Shown here piece after piece: positions 5,203 through 27,692 of a stretch of 64,000 bases of DNA; position 1 is the first letter of the stretch, and each line of letters opens with the position of its first letter. A program made the position numbers and the translations under genes. The notes below the pieces were generated by a model, which was given only the letters and a program-made list of their open reading frames with translations, ran no database searches and was not told the origin of the DNA. This DNA comes from Edaphobacter sp. (lineage in GTDB: Bacteria; Acidobacteriota; Terriglobia; Terriglobales; Acidobacteriaceae). The stretch covers positions 1,628,817 to 1,692,816 of the forward strand of contig OZ255826.1 of NCBI GenBank assembly GCA_965277545.1, written 5' to 3'.

Positions 5203-7518
5203 TTGTTCAAGCGACTCATCCCGTTCCTCTTCCTTCATGCCTTCCCGCTGCTCGCCCAAAGCAACAGCGGAGAGCTGCAGCTCCACGTGTCCGATCCATC
5301 CGGCATCGGCGTCCAATCCGCCATTGAAATCACAAGCCAGGCAAATTCCTATCGCCGGATACTGACCACCGACGAGCAGGGGGACCTGGAGGTCCAGCAC
5401 CTGCCCTATGGGCTCTATTTGTTCCACGTGGAACATTCCGGCTTCGCGGCCATCTCGGAGCCAGTCTCGATCCGCTCCTCGCTTCCAGTAAAACTCGCCC
5501 TCCGCCTCACCCTGACGACGGTCAGCCAGTCCGTCACCGTCACCGCGGAAAACACTCTGCTCGACACTGAGCAGGCCGGCTCCGTCAACCGCATCGGCTC
5601 GAGCGCCATCGAGCACCGGCTCAGCTCCCTTCCTGGCCGATCGCTCCAGGATCTGGTGAACTCGCAGCCCGGCTGGCTCTACGAGGGCAACGCCGTGCTG
5701 CACCCGCGCGGCTCCGAGTACCAGACGCAGTTTGTCATCGACGGCATCCCCCTCACCGACAATCGCTCCCCCAGCTTCGGCCCGGAGATCGAAGCCGACG
5801 ATGTCCAGTCGCTGAACATCTACACGGCCGGCATCCCGGCAGAGTACGGCCGTAAACTGGGCGGCGTGATCGAGGTGAATACAATTCAGGATTCCCAGGC
5901 CGGACTCCACGGGCAGGCCGTGCTCTCCGGCGGCAGCTTCGTCTCAGCCGGCGCCTTCCTCCAGGCCCAGTATGGCTGGAAGAACAGCACCCTCGGCGGC
6001 AGCGCGAGCGGCAGCAGGACCGACCATTACCTGAACCCTGTCGTGCCCGAAAATTACTCGAACACCGGAACCCTTGGCGATTTTTCCGTCAACGGCCAGC
6101 GCAATCTCACCCCGGACGATCGCGTGAACCTAGTCGTTCGCCACGAGCTCTCGCGCTACGACCTCCCCAACGAGTTCCTCCAGCAGGCCGCCGGCCAGCG
6201 TCAAACCGCGGCAAACGTCGAGACCATGGGCGTCATCTCCTATCAGCACGTCTTCTCGTCCACGATGCTTGCCAACCTCCGCGGCATGGTGCGCGACAAC
6301 GCCAACGACTTCAACTCCAATGCAGCCTCCACGCCCATCGAGGTCTTTCAACACAACGGATTCCGCGAAGGATATTTCAACGCCGCCGTGACCGTGGATC
6401 GCGGACGCCATGAGTGGAAGTTCGGCCTGGAATCCGACAACACCTTCCTCAAGGAAAACTTCCGCTACCTCATCACGGATCCTACCCGGTTCGACAGCGG
6501 CACGCCTAGCAGCTTCAGCTTCCTCGCAAACCGCCCTGATCTCGAACAGGCCGCCTTCGTGCAGGATCATATCCATCTCGGCGACTGGACCATCGAAGCC
6601 GGTCTCCGCTGGGACCACTACCAGCTTCTTCTGAACCGGCAGGCGTTCCAGCCGCGCCTTTCCGCCTCGCACTACTTTAAGTCCGTCGACACCGTCGTGC
6701 ACTTCTCCTATGACCGCATCTTTCAAACGCCCTCGTTTGAAAACATCCTGCTCTCCAGCTCTCCCGCGGTCGAAGCGCTGAGCCCGAACTTTCTGCGCTT
6801 TCCGGTCGAGCCTTCGCAAGGGGACTACTACGAAGCCGGCCTCACCAAAGCGTTCGCTGGAAAAATCAGGCTCGATGCCAACTACTTCCGCCGCTTCTTC
6901 AACAACTTTGCCGACGACAGCCAGCTCGACAACACCACGATCAGCTTCCCCATTTCATTCCGCAAAGCGGTCCTCTACGGCGCCGAGGGCAAGCTTACGG
7001 TTCCCGACTGGCGCCGCTTTTCCGGCTTCGTGAGCTACTCCTACAGCGTCGGCAACGCCTGGTATCCGGCTACCGGCGGCCTCTTTCTCGGCAACAACGC
7101 TGCGGCGGCCGCGGCACAGCTCACCGGCCACTTCCCGGTCTCGCAGGATCAGCGCAACACCCTTCGCGGGCGCGTCCGCTACCAGATCAAGCCGCGCGTC
7201 TGGATTGCAGGCGGCGTGCAGTACGACTCCGGACTGCCGTTTCAGTTCAATGGCGATTCAGCAACAGTGCTCGCGCAGTACGGCCAGCAGGTGCTCGACC
7301 GCATCAACTTCGACCGCGGCCGCATCTATCCTGCGCTGCTGTTCAACGCTACGGCCGGCGCAGACATCTATCAATCGGATCGAGTGAAGATGCACTTCCA
7401 GACCGACGGCGAGAACCTCACCAACACGCTCGATGTGCTCGACTTCGGCGGTCTCTTTTCGGGCAACGCCATCGGCCCCTCGCGCAGCTTCGCCCTGCGG
7501 CTCACCGCCAGTTTCTAG
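5203..7518 (+). CDS. TonB-dependent receptor with carboxypeptidase-regulatory-like N-domain
   Basis: Signal peptide, then CarboxypepD_reg-like segment (ELQLHVSDPSGIGVQSAIEI), plug-like segment (..FVIDGIPLTDN..) and a long beta-barrel ending ..FALRLTASF with terminal Phe. Confidence 0.85.
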   Translation: MFKRLIPFLFLHAFPLLAQSNSGELQLHVSDPSGIGVQSAIEITSQANSYRRILTTDEQGDLEVQHLPYGLYLFHVEHSGFAAISEPVSIRSSLPVKLALRLTLTTVSQSVTVTAENTLLDTEQAGSVNRIGSSAIEHRLSSLPGRSLQDLVNSQPGWLYEGNAVLHPRGSEYQTQFVIDGIPLTDNRSPSFGPEIEADDVQSLNIYTAGIPAEYGRKLGGVIEVNTIQDSQAGLHGQAVLSGGSFVSAGAFLQAQYGWKNSTLGGSASGSRTDHYLNPVVPENYSNTGTLGDFSVNGQRNLTPDDRVNLVVRHELSRYDLPNEFLQQAAGQRQTAANVETMGVISYQHVFSSTMLANLRGMVRDNANDFNSNAASTPIEVFQHNGFREGYFNAAVTVDRGRHEWKFGLESDNTFLKENFRYLITDPTRFDSGTPSSFSFLANRPDLEQAAFVQDHIHLGDWTIEAGLRWDHYQLLLNRQAFQPRLSASHYFKSVDTVVHFSYDRIFQTPSFENILLSSSPAVEALSPNFLRFPVEPSQGDYYEAGLTKAFAGKIRLDANYFRRFFNNFADDSQLDNTTISFPISFRKAVLYGAEGKLTVPDWRRFSGFVSYSYSVGNAWYPATGGLFLGNNAAAAAAQLTGHFPVSQDQRNTLRGRVRYQIKPRVWIAGGVQYDSGLPFQFNGDSATVLAQYGQQVLDRINFDRGRIYPALLFNATAGADIYQSDRVKMHFQTDGENLTNTLDVLDFGGLFSGNAIGPSRSFALRLTASF

Positions 7519-24172: not shown

Positions 24173-24214
24173 GCAGCCTCTGATGAATGCTGTTCCCCAA
24201 TCCGTTCTATGATC

Positions 24215-24350
24215 CTGAGTTCCCACTTCTTGCCATCGTCTGAGCGCCCCAGTTCTCGCTGTCATTCAGAGGTCCCACTTCTTACTGTCATCTGAGCTCC
24301 CGAGTTCTTGCTGTCATCCTGACCCTCGAGCGAAGCGAAGGGGAAGGATC
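24215..24350 (+). repeat. Degenerate tandem half-sites related to repeat family B
   Basis: Four successive units CCCACTTCTTGCCATCGTCTGAGCG / CCCAGTTCTCGCTGTCATTCAGAGGT / CCCACTTCTTACTGTCATCTGAGCT / CCCGAGTTCTTGCTGTCATCCTGACCCTCGAGCGAAGCGAAGGGGAAGGATCC. Confidence 0.6.
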
Positions 24351-24499: not shown

Positions 24500-24610
24500 C
24501 CATCGGACCTTCCTTGCCCTTGCCCTTGCCCTTGCCATTGCCGTTGTACTTGCTTTTGCCCTAGCCTTTCTGGTTGTCATCCTCGAAGAGGATCTGCTTT
24601 TGCTCTTTCA
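24500..24610 (+). repeat. Repeat family E, copy 3
   Basis: (CCCTTG)x4 microsatellite, then ..GCCTTTCTGGTTGTC-ATCCTC-GAA-GAGGAT-CTGCTTTTGC (hairpin 24579-24593). Confidence 0.75.
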
Positions 24611-24935
24611 GAAGACCAACTTCAGCTCCCCAAACTATTTTTCTCGAAATCCGGGCCAAATTCGCATGTCAAGCCCCTGAACACGATAAATCAAAGTATC
24701 CAAAAAACTTACGCTTGGCGCATGAGTTTATATCCATTGCGTATAATTAAAATAGCAACGAAAGAGACGCCCAGCCAAGCTCCGTGCTGACCTAACTCCT
24801 TTGGAATCTAAATTTTTAGGGTTAATTCCCCTCGAATCTATATTTTGCGCGCCAAGATTCCCCCAAGGACAATTATACACTTGACACATAAATAGATTAG
24901 CGCGATACTTGAAAAAGTAGTCAAGAGGCGCAGCG

Positions 24936-25886
24936 ATGAATCTGATAGACGTAACCCGCGAGTTTCAGAACGATGATGATTGCCTCGCCTACCTTGAGAC
25001 CATGCGCTGGCCAGATGGTATCCGTTGCCCTATCTGCGGCGCAAAAGAAATCAGTAAGATCACCCGTAAGACTCCCTCCAAGAACAAGCGCACCCGGATC
25101 TACCAGTGCCTAGAGAAGACTTGCAAATCGCAGTTCTCTGCCACGAATGGAACGATCTTCAATGATTCTCATCTCCCCCTAACGAAGTGGTTCATGGCTC
25201 TGGCCATCGTCGTAGACGCGAAAAAAGGCATCTCCGCAAAGCAGCTACAGGAGCACTTAGGCATCGGCTCCTATCGCACCGCTTGGTACATGGCGCACCG
25301 CATCCGTAAGGCAATGACTGCCGATGGAGTCTTTCAGATGACCGGAACGGTCGAAATCGACGAGACCTTCATCGGGGGAACGGCCATACGCCGCTTTCAG
25401 AAAACTCCTAAGGTACGTGCACCTAAGGAAATGGTTCTGGGGATGCGCGAACGTAGCACTAAGGACAAGACGGGCCGGGTCCGCTACTTCCATATCCCAG
25501 ACGGCAAGCGGAGCACGATCCAGCCCATCATTGAAGCTAATGTTGCGCCGTGGGTCAAGCGGGTTTACACGGATTCCAGCGCGGTTTATGACTTCGCTAT
25601 AAACGAAACGCTTGCGCCGCGTCACCGCAAGGTCAATCACTCTGAGCAGTGGGTTGTGCCGGGTAGCCGTATCCACACGAACACGGTCGAGTCCAGCTTC
25701 TCACTCCTCAAGCGTGGTTTGATAGGCAGCTATCACCGCGTCTCGATAAAGCACCTGCACCGCTACCTTACGGAGTTTGAGTACCGTTTCAACGCACGTA
25801 AGGCGTCGGACCGCTTTAGCATGACGTTGGGGGAGATGATGAAGACATCCGCTATGCCTTACGCGGCTTTGACGGCGGGGGAATAG
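24936..25886 (+). CDS. IS1595 family (ISXO2-like) transposase
   Basis: N-terminal transposase zinc ribbon (..DDDCLAYLETMRWPDGIRCPICG..YQC..C), then the DDE domain (..VEIDETFIGG..VYTDSSAVY..) and C-terminal ..LKRGLIGSYHRVSIKHLHRYLTEFEYRFNAR, which is typical of the family. Confidence 0.85.
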   Translation: MNLIDVTREFQNDDDCLAYLETMRWPDGIRCPICGAKEISKITRKTPSKNKRTRIYQCLEKTCKSQFSATNGTIFNDSHLPLTKWFMALAIVVDAKKGISAKQLQEHLGIGSYRTAWYMAHRIRKAMTADGVFQMTGTVEIDETFIGGTAIRRFQKTPKVRAPKEMVLGMRERSTKDKTGRVRYFHIPDGKRSTIQPIIEANVAPWVKRVYTDSSAVYDFAINETLAPRHRKVNHSEQWVVPGSRIHTNTVESSFSLLKRGLIGSYHRVSIKHLHRYLTEFEYRFNARKASDRFSMTLGEMMKTSAMPYAALTAGE

Positions 25887-25936
25887 CGGGGATTATCTTC
25901 CCGGCTTTCCCCTGAGTCTTTATCCCAGCCTTAGGC

Positions 25937-26170
25937 TCAGGCGGTGACTTCATCATGCGCTGAAGTAGGCTGTCGAATTGTCCCTTGTCTACCTTCATAT
26001 CTCCTCACCTCCAAAGGCCTGAGCGACTCCCGGAATACGTGCTCTGCGCCGCATTTGTAGCATTTCACCATACCAGTGTAAGCTCCCGCAGTTTGGGAGA
26101 GACACGCGCCACACTCCATGCAACTGGACTCGACAACGGCCATCGGGAAACCCTCTAGCCCAACTCTCAC
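25937..26170 (-). CDS. hypothetical zinc-ribbon protein
   Basis: CMECGAC..(17 aa)..CYKCGAE forms two CxxC pairs. Start is GTG 26170 or Met-10. No homologue recognised. Confidence 0.4.
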   Translation of the reverse strand: MRVGLEGFPMAVVESSCMECGACLSQTAGAYTGMVKCYKCGAEHVFRESLRPLEVRRYEGRQGTIRQPTSAHDEVTA

Positions 26171-26265
26171 GCATCCATAAGTGACTTCAACTTTATTTTG
26201 ACGCCACCGGTTGACTTATAATGGGTCAGCGTGTCACTGTAGAGAGGTTGTTTTAGGAGACCACG

Positions 26266-26778
26266 ATGGAGACTACCAAAATTCGCATGAAGATTGGAAC
26301 TCACGAGTTTGAGGCCGAGGGTCCCGCTGAAACAGTAAAGGAGCAACTTGAGGCATTTCGCTCTCTTCTGAGTACAGGAGAGGCGATTGTGAAGACAATT
26401 GCATCTCCTGCCCAGCCTGAAAGTTCCGCTAAAACAGGCGATCCTACTCATGTCAGCCTAGAACGAATTATGCGAGTGCAAGGGCGCATTGTTTCGCTTA
26501 CTGCCATACCTGCCTCAGAGGGAGACGCGGCCCTGCTTGTGCTATTGGGAAACAAAGATATGCGAAACAACGAAGCCGTCACAGGTATGGAGATCGGAGA
26601 CGGCTTGGCGCAATCAGGACGCCCTGTCTCCCGCGTTGATCGGGTGATGGAGAAATTGAAAGAAGAGGCATTTGTCATGAAGTCTGGGTATCGGCGAGGC
26701 GTCAAGTACCGCCTCTCCAACTCGGGACACACAAAGGCTCTTGCTGTTGCAAGGGAGTTGATCGCGTCTCTTCCATAA
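26266..26778 (+). CDS. hypothetical protein with probable C-terminal winged-helix domain
   Basis: Strong AGGAG 7 nt upstream of the ATG. The C-terminal half (..AVTGMEIGDGLAQSGRPVSRVDRVMEKLKEEAFVMKSGYRRGVKYRLSNSG) looks like a wHTH; this is pattern recognition only. Confidence 0.55.
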   Translation: METTKIRMKIGTHEFEAEGPAETVKEQLEAFRSLLSTGEAIVKTIASPAQPESSAKTGDPTHVSLERIMRVQGRIVSLTAIPASEGDAALLVLLGNKDMRNNEAVTGMEIGDGLAQSGRPVSRVDRVMEKLKEEAFVMKSGYRRGVKYRLSNSGHTKALAVARELIASLP

Positions 26779-26863
26779 CGGGAGCGCGTTGGAGGGCACG
26801 ATGATAAGAAGAGCCGTAGCCCGTCGCCATCCCGTCCACCGTGACGGCGGGTGCAAGCAGAAA

Positions 26864-26906
26864 GCCTCGAATCGCTAACATCCTGTCGAGGGACGCGATT
26901 CGAGGC
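26864..26906 (+). other. Perfect 12-bp inverted repeat (hairpin) 14 nt upstream of the unusual tRNA
   Basis: GCCTCGAATCGC (26864-26875), 19-nt loop, GCGATTCGAGGC (26895-26906), followed by TTGGTGGTT. Confidence 0.6.
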
Positions 26907-26920
26907 TTGGTGGTTCCACT

Positions 26921-27010
26921 GGAGGGGTACTGTCGGCGGCGCGACTAGGAGCCTTATAAACTCCGAACGGCAGTGTGCAACCACTGCGGGTTCGACTCCC
27001 TACCTCTCCG
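26921..27010 (+). tRNA. Non-canonical tRNA-like gene, 9/3 (allo-tRNA-type) cloverleaf, anticodon UAU, Ser-type variable arm and G73
   Basis: Acceptor GGAGGGGTA (26921-29) pairs with TACCTCTCC (27001-09): 9 bp with one G-U. D stem GTCG/CGAC. Anticodon stem GGAGC/ACTCC, loop CTTATAA (anticodon TAT at 26955-57). Variable stem GCAGTG/CACTGC. T arm GGG-TTCGACT-CCC. Discriminator G 27010. No encoded CCA. Confidence 0.65.
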
Positions 27011-27059
27011 CTTCCCTCTAGTGTAAGCCAAGACTTGAGAAATTAATAGGGGTTTTGCG

Positions 27060-27299
27060 ATGGCGCTTTACAGATACAGTACCTTCCTGAGCATTCTTAA
27101 CAACGATGAATTCGACAAGATTTACAGTCCTGGCGACAGAACATCGTGGTCCGGCATATACAGATGCGAAGGCTGCGGACACGAGGCGGTACATACGATT
27201 GACAAGCCACTACCGCCTCAGAACCATCATCAACACAAACCAGGGCAAGGTTCTATTCGCTGGCGGTTGGTAGTAACTGATTCTGTCCCTCCTGCTTAG
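27060..27299 (+). CDS. hypothetical small protein (CxxC..H-rich)
   Basis: 79-aa ORF inside the AT-richer island with ..YRCEGCGHEAVH..NHHQH.. Its 3' end overlaps the convergent ORF 27253-27465 by 47 nt. Confidence 0.4.
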   Translation: MALYRYSTFLSILNNDEFDKIYSPGDRTSWSGIYRCEGCGHEAVHTIDKPLPPQNHHQHKPGQGSIRWRLVVTDSVPPA

Positions 27300-27465
27300 G
27301 CACACTTAGAAACATGGGTGTACACGGCTCCTGCGGACAGTTGCTCCAAAGGAGCCGTGCCATGTTGGGAAGAGCATCCGCAACCCCGATTGCACGTTCT
27401 GCTGGTACCTTATCCTTCATGAACTCCAGCACAGCCTTTACGTCCCTGTTCACCTCGATCTGCAT
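27253..27465 (-). CDS. hypothetical small protein
   Basis: 70-aa ORF. AGGAGG lies 6 nt upstream of its ATG (reverse complement of CCTCCT at 27472-27477). Confidence 0.45.
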   Translation of the reverse strand: MQIEVNRDVKAVLEFMKDKVPAERAIGVADALPNMARLLWSNCPQEPCTPMFLSVPKQEGQNQLLPTASE

Positions 27466-27692
27466 TTGATCCTCCTGTTAATCAGGAGATTAACATAAGT
27501 AAAATTATGTGTCAAGTGCATAATTCCCCCCCCCCAAGTGACTCATTATAGGCAACTTGCAAAATAGAGGGGGGAGGGGGGTACCCCCTCGTGATCCTAG
27601 TCTAAGTAATTCCCTCGCTGCGACGCCAAAATACCAGGGTGCCCCATAACCGGACTCTCGGACATGGGCCAACGACTTCGCCACCAAGCTAG

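Follow-up and report, generated by a model that had tools for sequence, protein, structure and literature searches.

The 64,000-nt window analysed here (positions 1,628,817 to 1,692,816 of contig OZ255826.1, assembly GCA_965277545.1, from the acidobacterium Edaphobacter sp.) contains a 2.66-kb insertion sequence (IS) of the IS1595 family that encloses a tRNA gene of unusual shape. We describe this element, its relatives and the match between the tRNA and particular codons of the element's own genes. All positions given are those of the window. The transposase gene (24936-25886, plus strand) codes for an intact DDE enzyme of 316 residues. Its family assignment, first made by a reading of the sequence without database searches (hereafter the sequence-only reading), is borne out by matches to DDE_Tnp_IS1595 of Pfam (PF12762, 2e-30, full profile) and to NF033547 of NCBIfam (7e-54, 182.9 bits for a cutoff of 75), and by an N-terminal zinc ribbon (Zn_ribbon_IS1595, PF12760, 1.4e-11, residues 12-66). 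Looking up the exact transposase sequence gave no entry, and a plasmid search with it returned relatives of at most 39% identity under the generic label 'IS1595 family transposase', with no ISfinder name. All the interior features listed in the sequence-only reading are present between the terminal repeats, namely a zinc-ribbon open reading frame (ORF), a winged helix-turn-helix (wHTH)-like ORF, a perfect hairpin, the 9/3 tRNA and two convergent small ORFs. A conserved ORF of 48 codons on the minus strand had been missed.

The element is bounded by 21-bp inverted repeats. The left copy, AATTATACACTTGACACATAA (24871-24891), has its last base 44 nt before the transposase ATG at 24936, and the right copy (27505-27525) is its reverse complement with one mismatch (20/21). 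A repeat search recovered this pair as it had been described and found it to be unique, with no further copy in the window at up to three mismatches and 0 expected from shuffles. We assembled a comparison set of 115 related loci (designated by L numbers), comprising 80 genome loci and 35 metagenome loci. The genome loci were collected by querying one genome per species with the transposase; they come mostly from Acidobacteriaceae genome bins, at 82-39% identity. Cultured carriers of family members include Acidicapsa dinghuensis 4GSKX and the Acidobacteriaceae strain dw_441, the latter with locus L037. In nearly all of those with a long enough contig, an inverted pair with the end consensus G-N-N-G-ATTATGCACTTGACACAGA surrounds the transposase gene. 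The motif is essentially confined to such pairs, which rules out the possibility that the 21-mer is a general genomic repeat. When the start of the repeat was placed 4 nt before ATTAT, perfect 8-bp direct repeats were found to flank 47 units of 1.7-6.3 kb at different sites, 37 of them in the close clade and 10 in the distant clade.

By this rule, the true ends of the window element are predicted at 24868 and about 27528, ~3 nt outside the 21-mer. The left terminal inverted repeat, GACAATTATACACTTGACACATAA, spans 24868-24891 (plus strand) according to the repeat-pair search and the family consensus, and the right one spans 27505-27528 (minus strand; reverse complement GGGAATTATGCACTTGACACATAA), with an outer edge uncertain by ~2 nt where it runs into ten C. 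The GACA terminus of the left end also occurs in L091 and L092, there with a clean duplication. The sequence-only reading saw no clean 8-bp target duplication at this locus. A duplication does exist, since CCCCCAAG is found on both sides, but its right copy is offset. The left copy (24860-24867) directly abuts the repeat, as in the 47 perfect cases, and two extra C (27529-27530) lie between the right repeat and the right copy (27531-27538). The 8 bp that directly abut the right repeat match at five positions out of eight, and CCCCCAAG appears on both sides only if the right copy is shifted by two C within the ten-C run. Slippage or an assembly effect could account for these two bases. The uninterrupted target is predicted to read ...GATTCCCCCAAGTGACTC....

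As had been pointed out, the right end lies not just after the transposase stop at 25886 but 1.6 kb further on. This tail of 1.64 kb holds four ORFs, a leader RNA and the tRNA. In intact members of the family, the distance from the transposase stop to the right repeat ranges from 0.84 to 5.3 kb; the shortest tail is ~840 bp, and no intact relative has an adjacent right end. Since perfect duplications surround 47 long units and the right repeat is never next to the transposase stop, the whole unit transposes from repeat to repeat. An alternative would be that a 1-kb IS has lost its right end, that the repeat at 27505 stems from another remnant and that the genes in between are host DNA. The unclean target duplication in the window agrees with such a history, as does the base composition. 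A GC profile confirmed that the stretch from 24.6 to 27.7 kb is AT-rich (GC 0.43-0.58 across 24.4-27.8 kb, compared with 0.60-0.70 in the adjoining genes), and the low-GC zone overshoots both ends by a few hundred bases. Nevertheless, no intact family member with a nearby right end was found, the family shares the small ORF, the leader and the tRNA, and metagenome locus L114 repeats the gene order of the window elsewhere, with a transposase, a small ORF, a zinc-ribbon ORF (56% identity), a wHTH ORF (62%) and a tRNA within a duplication of ATATTTTG. Furthermore, none of the loci found has the cargo genes without the transposase. It is thus near-certain that 24868 to ~27528 is one intact mobile unit, and a composite of remnants is exceedingly improbable.

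Units of this family have moved within genomes. Transfer between species, in line with the inference of the sequence-only reading that the tRNA is horizontally mobile, is plausible because the family spans several acidobacterial genera and the module types do not follow the transposase tree. Several bins hold two or three diverged members on separate contigs (L004 and L007; L019 and L055; L063, L065 and L071), and distinct element lineages therefore coexist in one genome. In a subgroup with a GAAG terminus (L023, L026-L030, L033-L035, L060), one flank contains TGTTTAY, and the 8-bp duplication falls mostly or wholly between this string and the repeat. This arrangement suggests that TGTTTAY may be a preferred target sequence.

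The tRNA gene is found at 26921-27011 (plus strand). ARAGORN calls it as a tRNA-Ile(UAU) of 91 nt, with its anticodon at 26955-26957. In its minimum-energy fold, 9 bp form the acceptor stem and 3 bp the T stem, and the variable arm is long. With a G after the acceptor stem, no encoded CCA and a covariance model score of 89 bits, it is a (9/3) allo-tRNA. The 7/5 cloverleaf, the short variable loop and the A73 of canonical bacterial tRNA-Ile are lacking. The sole match in Rfam is to tRNA-Sec, below threshold (31 bits for a threshold of 47), and the Rfam tRNA model gave no match. The D arm has a 4-bp stem and a 6-nt loop in the window copy; its length varies across the subgroup, such that it could not be aligned. 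The remaining structure is under constraint. Among the 11 sequences of the 9/3 subgroup to which the window copy belongs, 96.9% of cells are paired and 13 of 24 pairs change on both sides, values that no shuffle reached. In this set, the 9-bp acceptor helix is 100% paired and its pairs 5, 6, 7 and 9 show compensatory changes; the variable-arm helix of 6-7 bp also covaries.

ARAGORN detected a UAU tRNA (or one with UUA or an 8-nt loop) downstream of the transposase in ~30 loci. Using a profile and a covariance model, we found the tRNA in 44 of the 50 delimited elements of the close, acidobacterial clade. It invariably lies between the repeats, with both orientations represented. The six elements without it are the deletion remnants L058 and L059, the truncated L013 and the intact L037, L045 and L047. 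The covariance model found no tRNA in the clade of ~40% identity (Deltaproteobacteria and other phyla), whose passengers also differ (e.g. DUF3800). In the reverse direction, a search of metagenomes with the tRNA pattern yielded the 35 metagenome loci, 24 of which have a transposase, the small ORF or a repeat beside the tRNA. Ten of the other 11 are contigs shorter than 3 kb, and in the last one, L107 (10.3 kb), the tRNA is 1.3 kb from one end. The tRNA bodies come in 8/4 and 9/3 forms with differing D and variable arms, and tRNA type is discordant with the transposase tree, which indicates that right-hand modules have been exchanged between elements. The core of the anticodon loop, TTATA (U33-UAU-A37), is constant in the ~50 copies inspected; the exception is an extra UUA-type tRNA in L040.

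These data bear on one rival view of the tRNA, according to which it is a passive hitch-hiker, captured once and with no role in the expression of the element, while any rare codons of the element are unrelated throttles. IS1595-family elements with unrelated passengers are an established category (PMC3129680, citing Siguier et al. 2009), the protein passengers of the present family do vary freely, and related tRNAs gave negative results in Escherichia coli (PMC5389517). However, 44 of 50 elements have kept the tRNA despite turnover of the protein passengers and divergence of the transposases to as little as 49% identity (median 60%), and the anticodon-loop core is unchanged although the tRNA body switches between 8/4 and 9/3. 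The data thus support the tRNA as a family-wide core part of the element, not an accidental cargo. The sequence-only reading had called it mobile transposon cargo; it does lie inside the terminal repeats and moves with the unit, as shown by its independent copies, but 'cargo' understates its place in the conserved core.

Some copies of the 8/4 type (L006, L011, L012, L016, L021, L024, L033, L035, L036, L041 and L060) have the anticodon loop AUUUAUAC or CUUUAUAU, for which ARAGORN calls either an 8-nt loop with a 4-base anticodon or UUA (ochre); UAU followed by A is still present in them. A second irregular tRNA-like gene accompanies the UAU gene in L030 (1293-1366), L034 (~7170-7250), L040 (7866-7952), L023 (7268-7342, minus strand) and L043 (8562-8640, minus strand). 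ARAGORN calls for these second genes include Ala-GGC, Stop-UUA, Asp-GUC and Ala-CGC, and they recall the 'polycistrons of irregular tRNAs' of Mukai et al. (2017, PMC5389517).

Clustering of all ORFs of the tails revealed another constant part. One family, of 46-50 residues with the pattern MKVDKxxFDxLLxRLMxxPP...GKAGKIIP, occurs in 45 elements. The window member (25852-25998, minus strand; MKVDKGQFDSLLQRMMKSPPEPKAGIKTQGKAGKIIPAIPPPSKPRKA) has 48 residues and runs convergently into the 3' end of the transposase gene, with which it overlaps; it also overlaps the tail of the zinc-ribbon ORF in another frame. No match to it was found in Pfam or NCBIfam. Its ratio of synonymous to nonsynonymous differences, 0.42 in frame compared with 0.15 and 0.04 in the shifted frames, is a coding pattern.

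The codons of these two core genes are related to the anticodon of the tRNA. In 45 transposases from tRNA-bearing elements, three conserved Ile columns, corresponding to codons 4, 263 and 271 (24945-24947, 25722-25724 and 25746-25748 in the window), contain 126 ATA and no ATC or ATT. The nine other conserved Ile columns of the same proteins contain one ATA and 319 ATC or ATT, and the latter two interchange freely. ATA makes up 6% of the remaining Ile codons of these genes (Fisher p ~1e-114, for sequences that are not phylogenetically independent). Likewise, the small ORF has two fixed Ile positions, codons 26 and 35 in the window, which are ATA in 40/41 and 42/42 cases, next to an Ile encoded by ATC or ATT. 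The metagenome copies show the same pattern. In the window, the transposase gene has 16 ATA per 1000 codons, compared with ~3 in the other genes. The codons on either side of the ATA sites vary synonymously, and hence what is constrained is the codon itself rather than a longer DNA motif. A conserved GATA motif as the origin of the ATA codons was ruled out by this variation in both the preceding and the following codons.

The codons also disappear with the tRNA. L037, which has no tRNA and is nested in the tRNA-bearing clade, has none of the five ATA codons. Among the other intact elements devoid of the tRNA, L047 has none of the five and L045 keeps one. Decoding best explains this combination of an invariant UAU anticodon with five AUA codons that are fixed in two core genes and lost with the tRNA, and the proteins of the element are probably translated with the help of its own tRNA. 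Five codons that fit the anticodon exactly and vanish where the tRNA is lost are not accounted for by a passive hitch-hiker, which we consider unlikely.

Directly 5' of the tRNA, we identified a structured, covarying leader RNA (26816-26919, plus strand), which occurs in 38 loci. It is ~100 nt long and always found beside the allo-tRNA, being immediately 5' and on the same strand in all loci inspected (e.g. L003, L010, L031, L038, L054, L087 and L114). Most of the 8/4-type tRNA copies have no leader upstream. Helix 1 pairs 26819-26828 with 26843-26852; helix 2, the perfect hairpin seen earlier, pairs 26863-26875 with 26895-26907. A pseudoknot joins the loop of helix 1 (CCACC, 26836-26840) to the segment just 3' of helix 2 (GGTGG, 26909-26913). 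Covariation is seen in each of these three pairings. Over the whole leader, 81% of cells are paired compared with 73% after shuffling, 22 of 33 pairs show two-sided changes, and none of 500 shuffles scored as high. The pseudoknot helix is 93% paired, with compensatory changes at five of six pairs (e.g. CAUC/GAUG and AGCC/GGCU). The leader has no match in Rfam, and neither ARAGORN nor Rfam supports its identification as a tmRNA or a known ribozyme. A natural guess is that it controls the processing of the tRNA.

An ORF of 25 codons (26801-26878), starting with ATG ATA AGA AGA, ends in the loop of helix 2, and the ATG-ATA start is common to L003, L031, L038, L054 and L087. Such an ORF overlaps the leader in the closest relatives of the window element, whereas L114, L017, L023, L027 and others lack it or have it out of frame; an AUA-sensing leader peptide or attenuator built on ATG-ATA-AGA was therefore set aside. 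The conserved box (GATAAG, TATAAG or GATATT) looks more like a putative -10 element than the start of a leader peptide.

Our best explanation, with a probability of about 0.65, is that the window contains an intact IS1595-family transporter IS whose translation is coupled to its own AUA decoder. The constant core of the element comprises the ~24-bp terminal repeats, in which TTGACA would double as an inward -35 box, the DDE transposase, the 48-residue antisense ORF and the allo-tRNA(UAU). In the subgroup of the window, the pseudoknotted leader precedes the tRNA, and the passengers of the window element are the zinc-ribbon ORF, the wHTH ORF and a CxxC/DUF2267-like pair. The element's own tRNA would read AUA, which is rare in the GC-rich host, at transposase codons 4, 263 and 271 and at codons 26 and 35 of the small ORF. 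The yield of the transposition proteins would then be coupled to, and probably gated by, the expression and maturation of the tRNA. Our comparisons show where the unit ends, that whole units of the family are mobile, that the tRNA is conserved and structurally constrained, and that ATA is kept at specific sites and lost along with the tRNA. Aminoacylation of the tRNA and its use by the ribosome, regulation of transposition through the coupling and control of tRNA output by the leader are inferred.

The tRNA might instead act outside translation, the allo-tRNA and its leader forming a regulatory or toxin-antitoxin-type stabilizer, for instance a decoy or a processing signal as suggested by Mukai et al. 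(PMC5389517). These authors observed no suppression in E. coli, toxicity of two of the six tRNAs tried and frequent toxin-antitoxin neighbours. In our family, HigB/HigA-like and XRE plus M78 modules are present, the tRNA occurs on either strand relative to the transposase gene and a structured leader precedes it, all of which would suit a non-translational RNA. Nevertheless, this proposal leaves unexplained both the fixed UAU anticodon and the fixation of the complementary codon at five sites of two core genes, from which it is lost together with the tRNA. Moreover, the toxin-antitoxin modules vary within the family, and many elements, that of the window among them, have none. We regard such a role as rather unlikely.

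Several points weigh against coupled translation by the element's own tRNA. Six allo-tRNA(UAU) were turned into amber suppressors by Mukai et al. (PMC5389517); none worked in E. coli, two were toxic, and these tRNAs were proposed not to be used in translation. In the window copy, a C-A mismatch closes the anticodon stem, and the expression, processing and charging of this tRNA are putative. The codon statistics come from related sequences, with just two independent tRNA losses behind the correlated loss. If AUA means Ile both through the host and through this tRNA, the strict exclusion of ATC and ATT requires that dependence on the tRNA bring a regulatory benefit, which we have assumed. Lastly, the target duplication of the window element is imperfect, and neither an empty site nor a syntenic relative was found among the loci retrieved.

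The exclusion of ATC and ATT would also follow if the tRNA were charged with an amino acid other than Ile, AUA then having a different meaning in the element than in host genes. Ser is the obvious candidate, given the long variable arm and the G after the acceptor stem. At the conserved columns, ATA never swaps with ATC or ATT, as if it were a separate class of codon. We applied a small codon-meaning inference, which recovered the right class for ten control codons and Ile for ATA in relatives devoid of the tRNA. In the tRNA-bearing transposases, the columns that hold ATA do not resemble Ile columns, and Ser outscored Ile in 55% of 20 heterogeneous columns (p = 0.006 relative to ATC/ATT columns and p = 0.0002 relative to ATA columns of the tRNA-less relatives), a suggestive but not decisive result. 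In addition, the Ser of a VNH[S] motif (alignment column 291, window codon ~232), which is conserved in both clades, is replaced by ATA in eight tRNA-bearing sequences of three lineages and never by ATC or ATT; the tRNA-less sisters of these sequences have Gly or Ala at this position.

However, these columns are few and varied, and rare codons may simply pile up at unconstrained polar positions. The replacements at the three fixed ATA sites of tRNA-bearing elements are mostly Val (GTA or GTG), the position of codon 4 is hydrophobic in distant relatives, and suppression of the Ser type failed in E. coli. Replacements after loss of the tRNA are uninformative, since the host then reads ATA as Ile. 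Recoding of AUA is thus a minority possibility, and we consider charging with another amino acid decidedly improbable. A fuller version, in which AUA at the five fixed sites would specify not Ile but most plausibly Ser or a mixture of residues, the proteins would be correct only with the element's own tRNA and the pseudoknotted leader would control the timing, appears quite unlikely.

Among known mobile elements, the closest in architecture are the IS1595 transporter ISs of the ISNwi1 type. The ends of the family (GATGATTAT, GAAGATTAT, GGCGATTAT and GGGGATTAT) and of the window element (GACAATTAT on the left, GGGAATTAT on the right) have the form G-N-N-G-ATTAT. This fits GGnnATTAT, the end form of the ISNwi1 subgroup in the ISfinder family table. 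By its ends, the window element is thus probably of the ISNwi1 type. It shares with these elements the DDE_Tnp_IS1595 domain and N-terminal zinc ribbon, the short inverted repeats, the 8-bp duplication (in the family) and passengers before the right end, the architecture called 'transporter IS' (Siguier, Gagnevin & Chandler 2009, cited in PMC3129680). It differs in that its constant passenger codes for a tRNA instead of a protein, that fixed codons of the transposase match this tRNA, and that its core includes an antisense small ORF.

Phage- and plasmid-borne tRNA genes match the codon usage of the element that carries them. They resemble our element in that the tRNA serves codons which the host uses rarely and the mobile element uses more often. 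Here, however, the carrier is a 2.7-kb IS, the match concerns five fixed codon positions rather than overall usage, and the tRNA is non-canonical. In Mycoplasma mobile, a tRNA-Ile(UAU) with an unmodified-type anticodon reads AUA without the lysidine pathway. That tRNA is a canonical member of the host set (7/5, A73), whereas the tRNA of the window is of the 9/3 form, with a long variable arm and a G discriminator. A literature search found nothing on an IS with a tRNA matched to fixed codons.

The tRNA itself corresponds to the allo-tRNA(UAU) of Acidobacteria (PMC5389517; reviewed in PMC7609411), with which it shares the 12-bp acceptor branch (9/3 here, 8/4 elsewhere in the family), the long variable arm, the UAU anticodon and the acidobacterial origin. 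Typical allo-tRNAs have a long D stem and a tetraloop, unlike the 4-bp stem and 6-nt loop of the window copy, and the UAU group deviates from the standard allo-tRNA shape according to Mukai et al. (PMC5389517). The neighbours reported in that work, toxin-antitoxin genes and a 'transposon-related protein', also fit this family. The element, its ends and the family were left undefined there, whereas here the tRNA sits in a defined IS1595-family unit. The fixed ATA codons argue for a use in decoding, contrary to the proposal of these authors, whose basis was the failure of amber suppression in E. coli.

Among the odd-shaped tRNAs of soil metagenomes, allo-tRNA(UAU) forms the most abundant group, and what it does has been an open question since 2017. 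Its placement in a multiplying IS1595 element would explain both this abundance and the reported neighbours, and the fixed ATA codons make its function directly testable. If our reading is right, an IS that brings the decoder for codons it deliberately keeps would represent a new way to control transposition. Should the amino acid not be Ile, the family would provide a natural case of element-specific codon reassignment.

Within the left repeat, TTGACA (24881-24886) is followed after 17 nt by GATACT, and the resulting promoter-like sequence (24881-24909), with 10 of 12 positions matching, faces the transposase gene. The inward-facing TTGACA is the most conserved segment of both terminal repeats, and the right one faces the DUF2267-like ORF.

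The protein passengers of the window element are four. The first is a small zinc-ribbon ORF with a CxxC...CxxC pattern (25937-26170, minus strand; weak sub-threshold matches), upstream of the 48-residue ORF on the same strand. The second (26266-26778, plus strand) codes for 170 residues with a weak TrmB-like winged helix (E = 0.002, below the cutoff). Both are absent from the 80 genome loci and common only to L114, in which the zinc-ribbon ORF occupies the same position. A metagenome scan with the wHTH protein found no relative, the L114 copy having surfaced in the tRNA-pattern scan. The third is a CxxC ORF of 79 residues (27060-27299, plus strand) that recurs in the family and has weak sub-threshold matches only. 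The fourth (27253-27465, minus strand), of 70 residues, shows a weak sub-threshold resemblance to DUF2267; a strong ribosome-binding site, AGGAGG, precedes it, and the inward TTGACA of the right repeat is situated upstream. The CxxC and DUF2267-like pair is also found in L010, L017, L038 and L068 and in metagenome elements, and the CxxC ORF alone in L031. Other members of the family harbour HigB/Gp49-like plus helix-turn-helix (HigB/HigA-like) pairs, XRE plus M78 peptidase, DUF3467 or DUF5343. Such modules explain why Mukai et al. saw toxin-antitoxin genes as neighbours.

The element is flanked by two ordinary convergent host genes, coding for a DM9-repeat protein and a GFO/IDH/MocA oxidoreductase. 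The hairpin noted just outside the right end is a GC palindrome, GAGGGGGGTACCCCCTC, which lies at 27574-27590 and not, as first given, one position to the left (27573-27589). It is single-copy in the window and has a T-rich tail on the minus strand; from these features, it reads as a putative terminator-like site of the oxidoreductase gene ~320 nt upstream. The L024 element, too, sits in a GGCCCCCCCCGGGG string. Lastly, the left flank outside the element (24195-24298 and 24512-24535) contains two 52-nt copies in tandem, 71% identical to each other, along with related repeats of 16 nt and repeats of CCTTGCCCTTGC.

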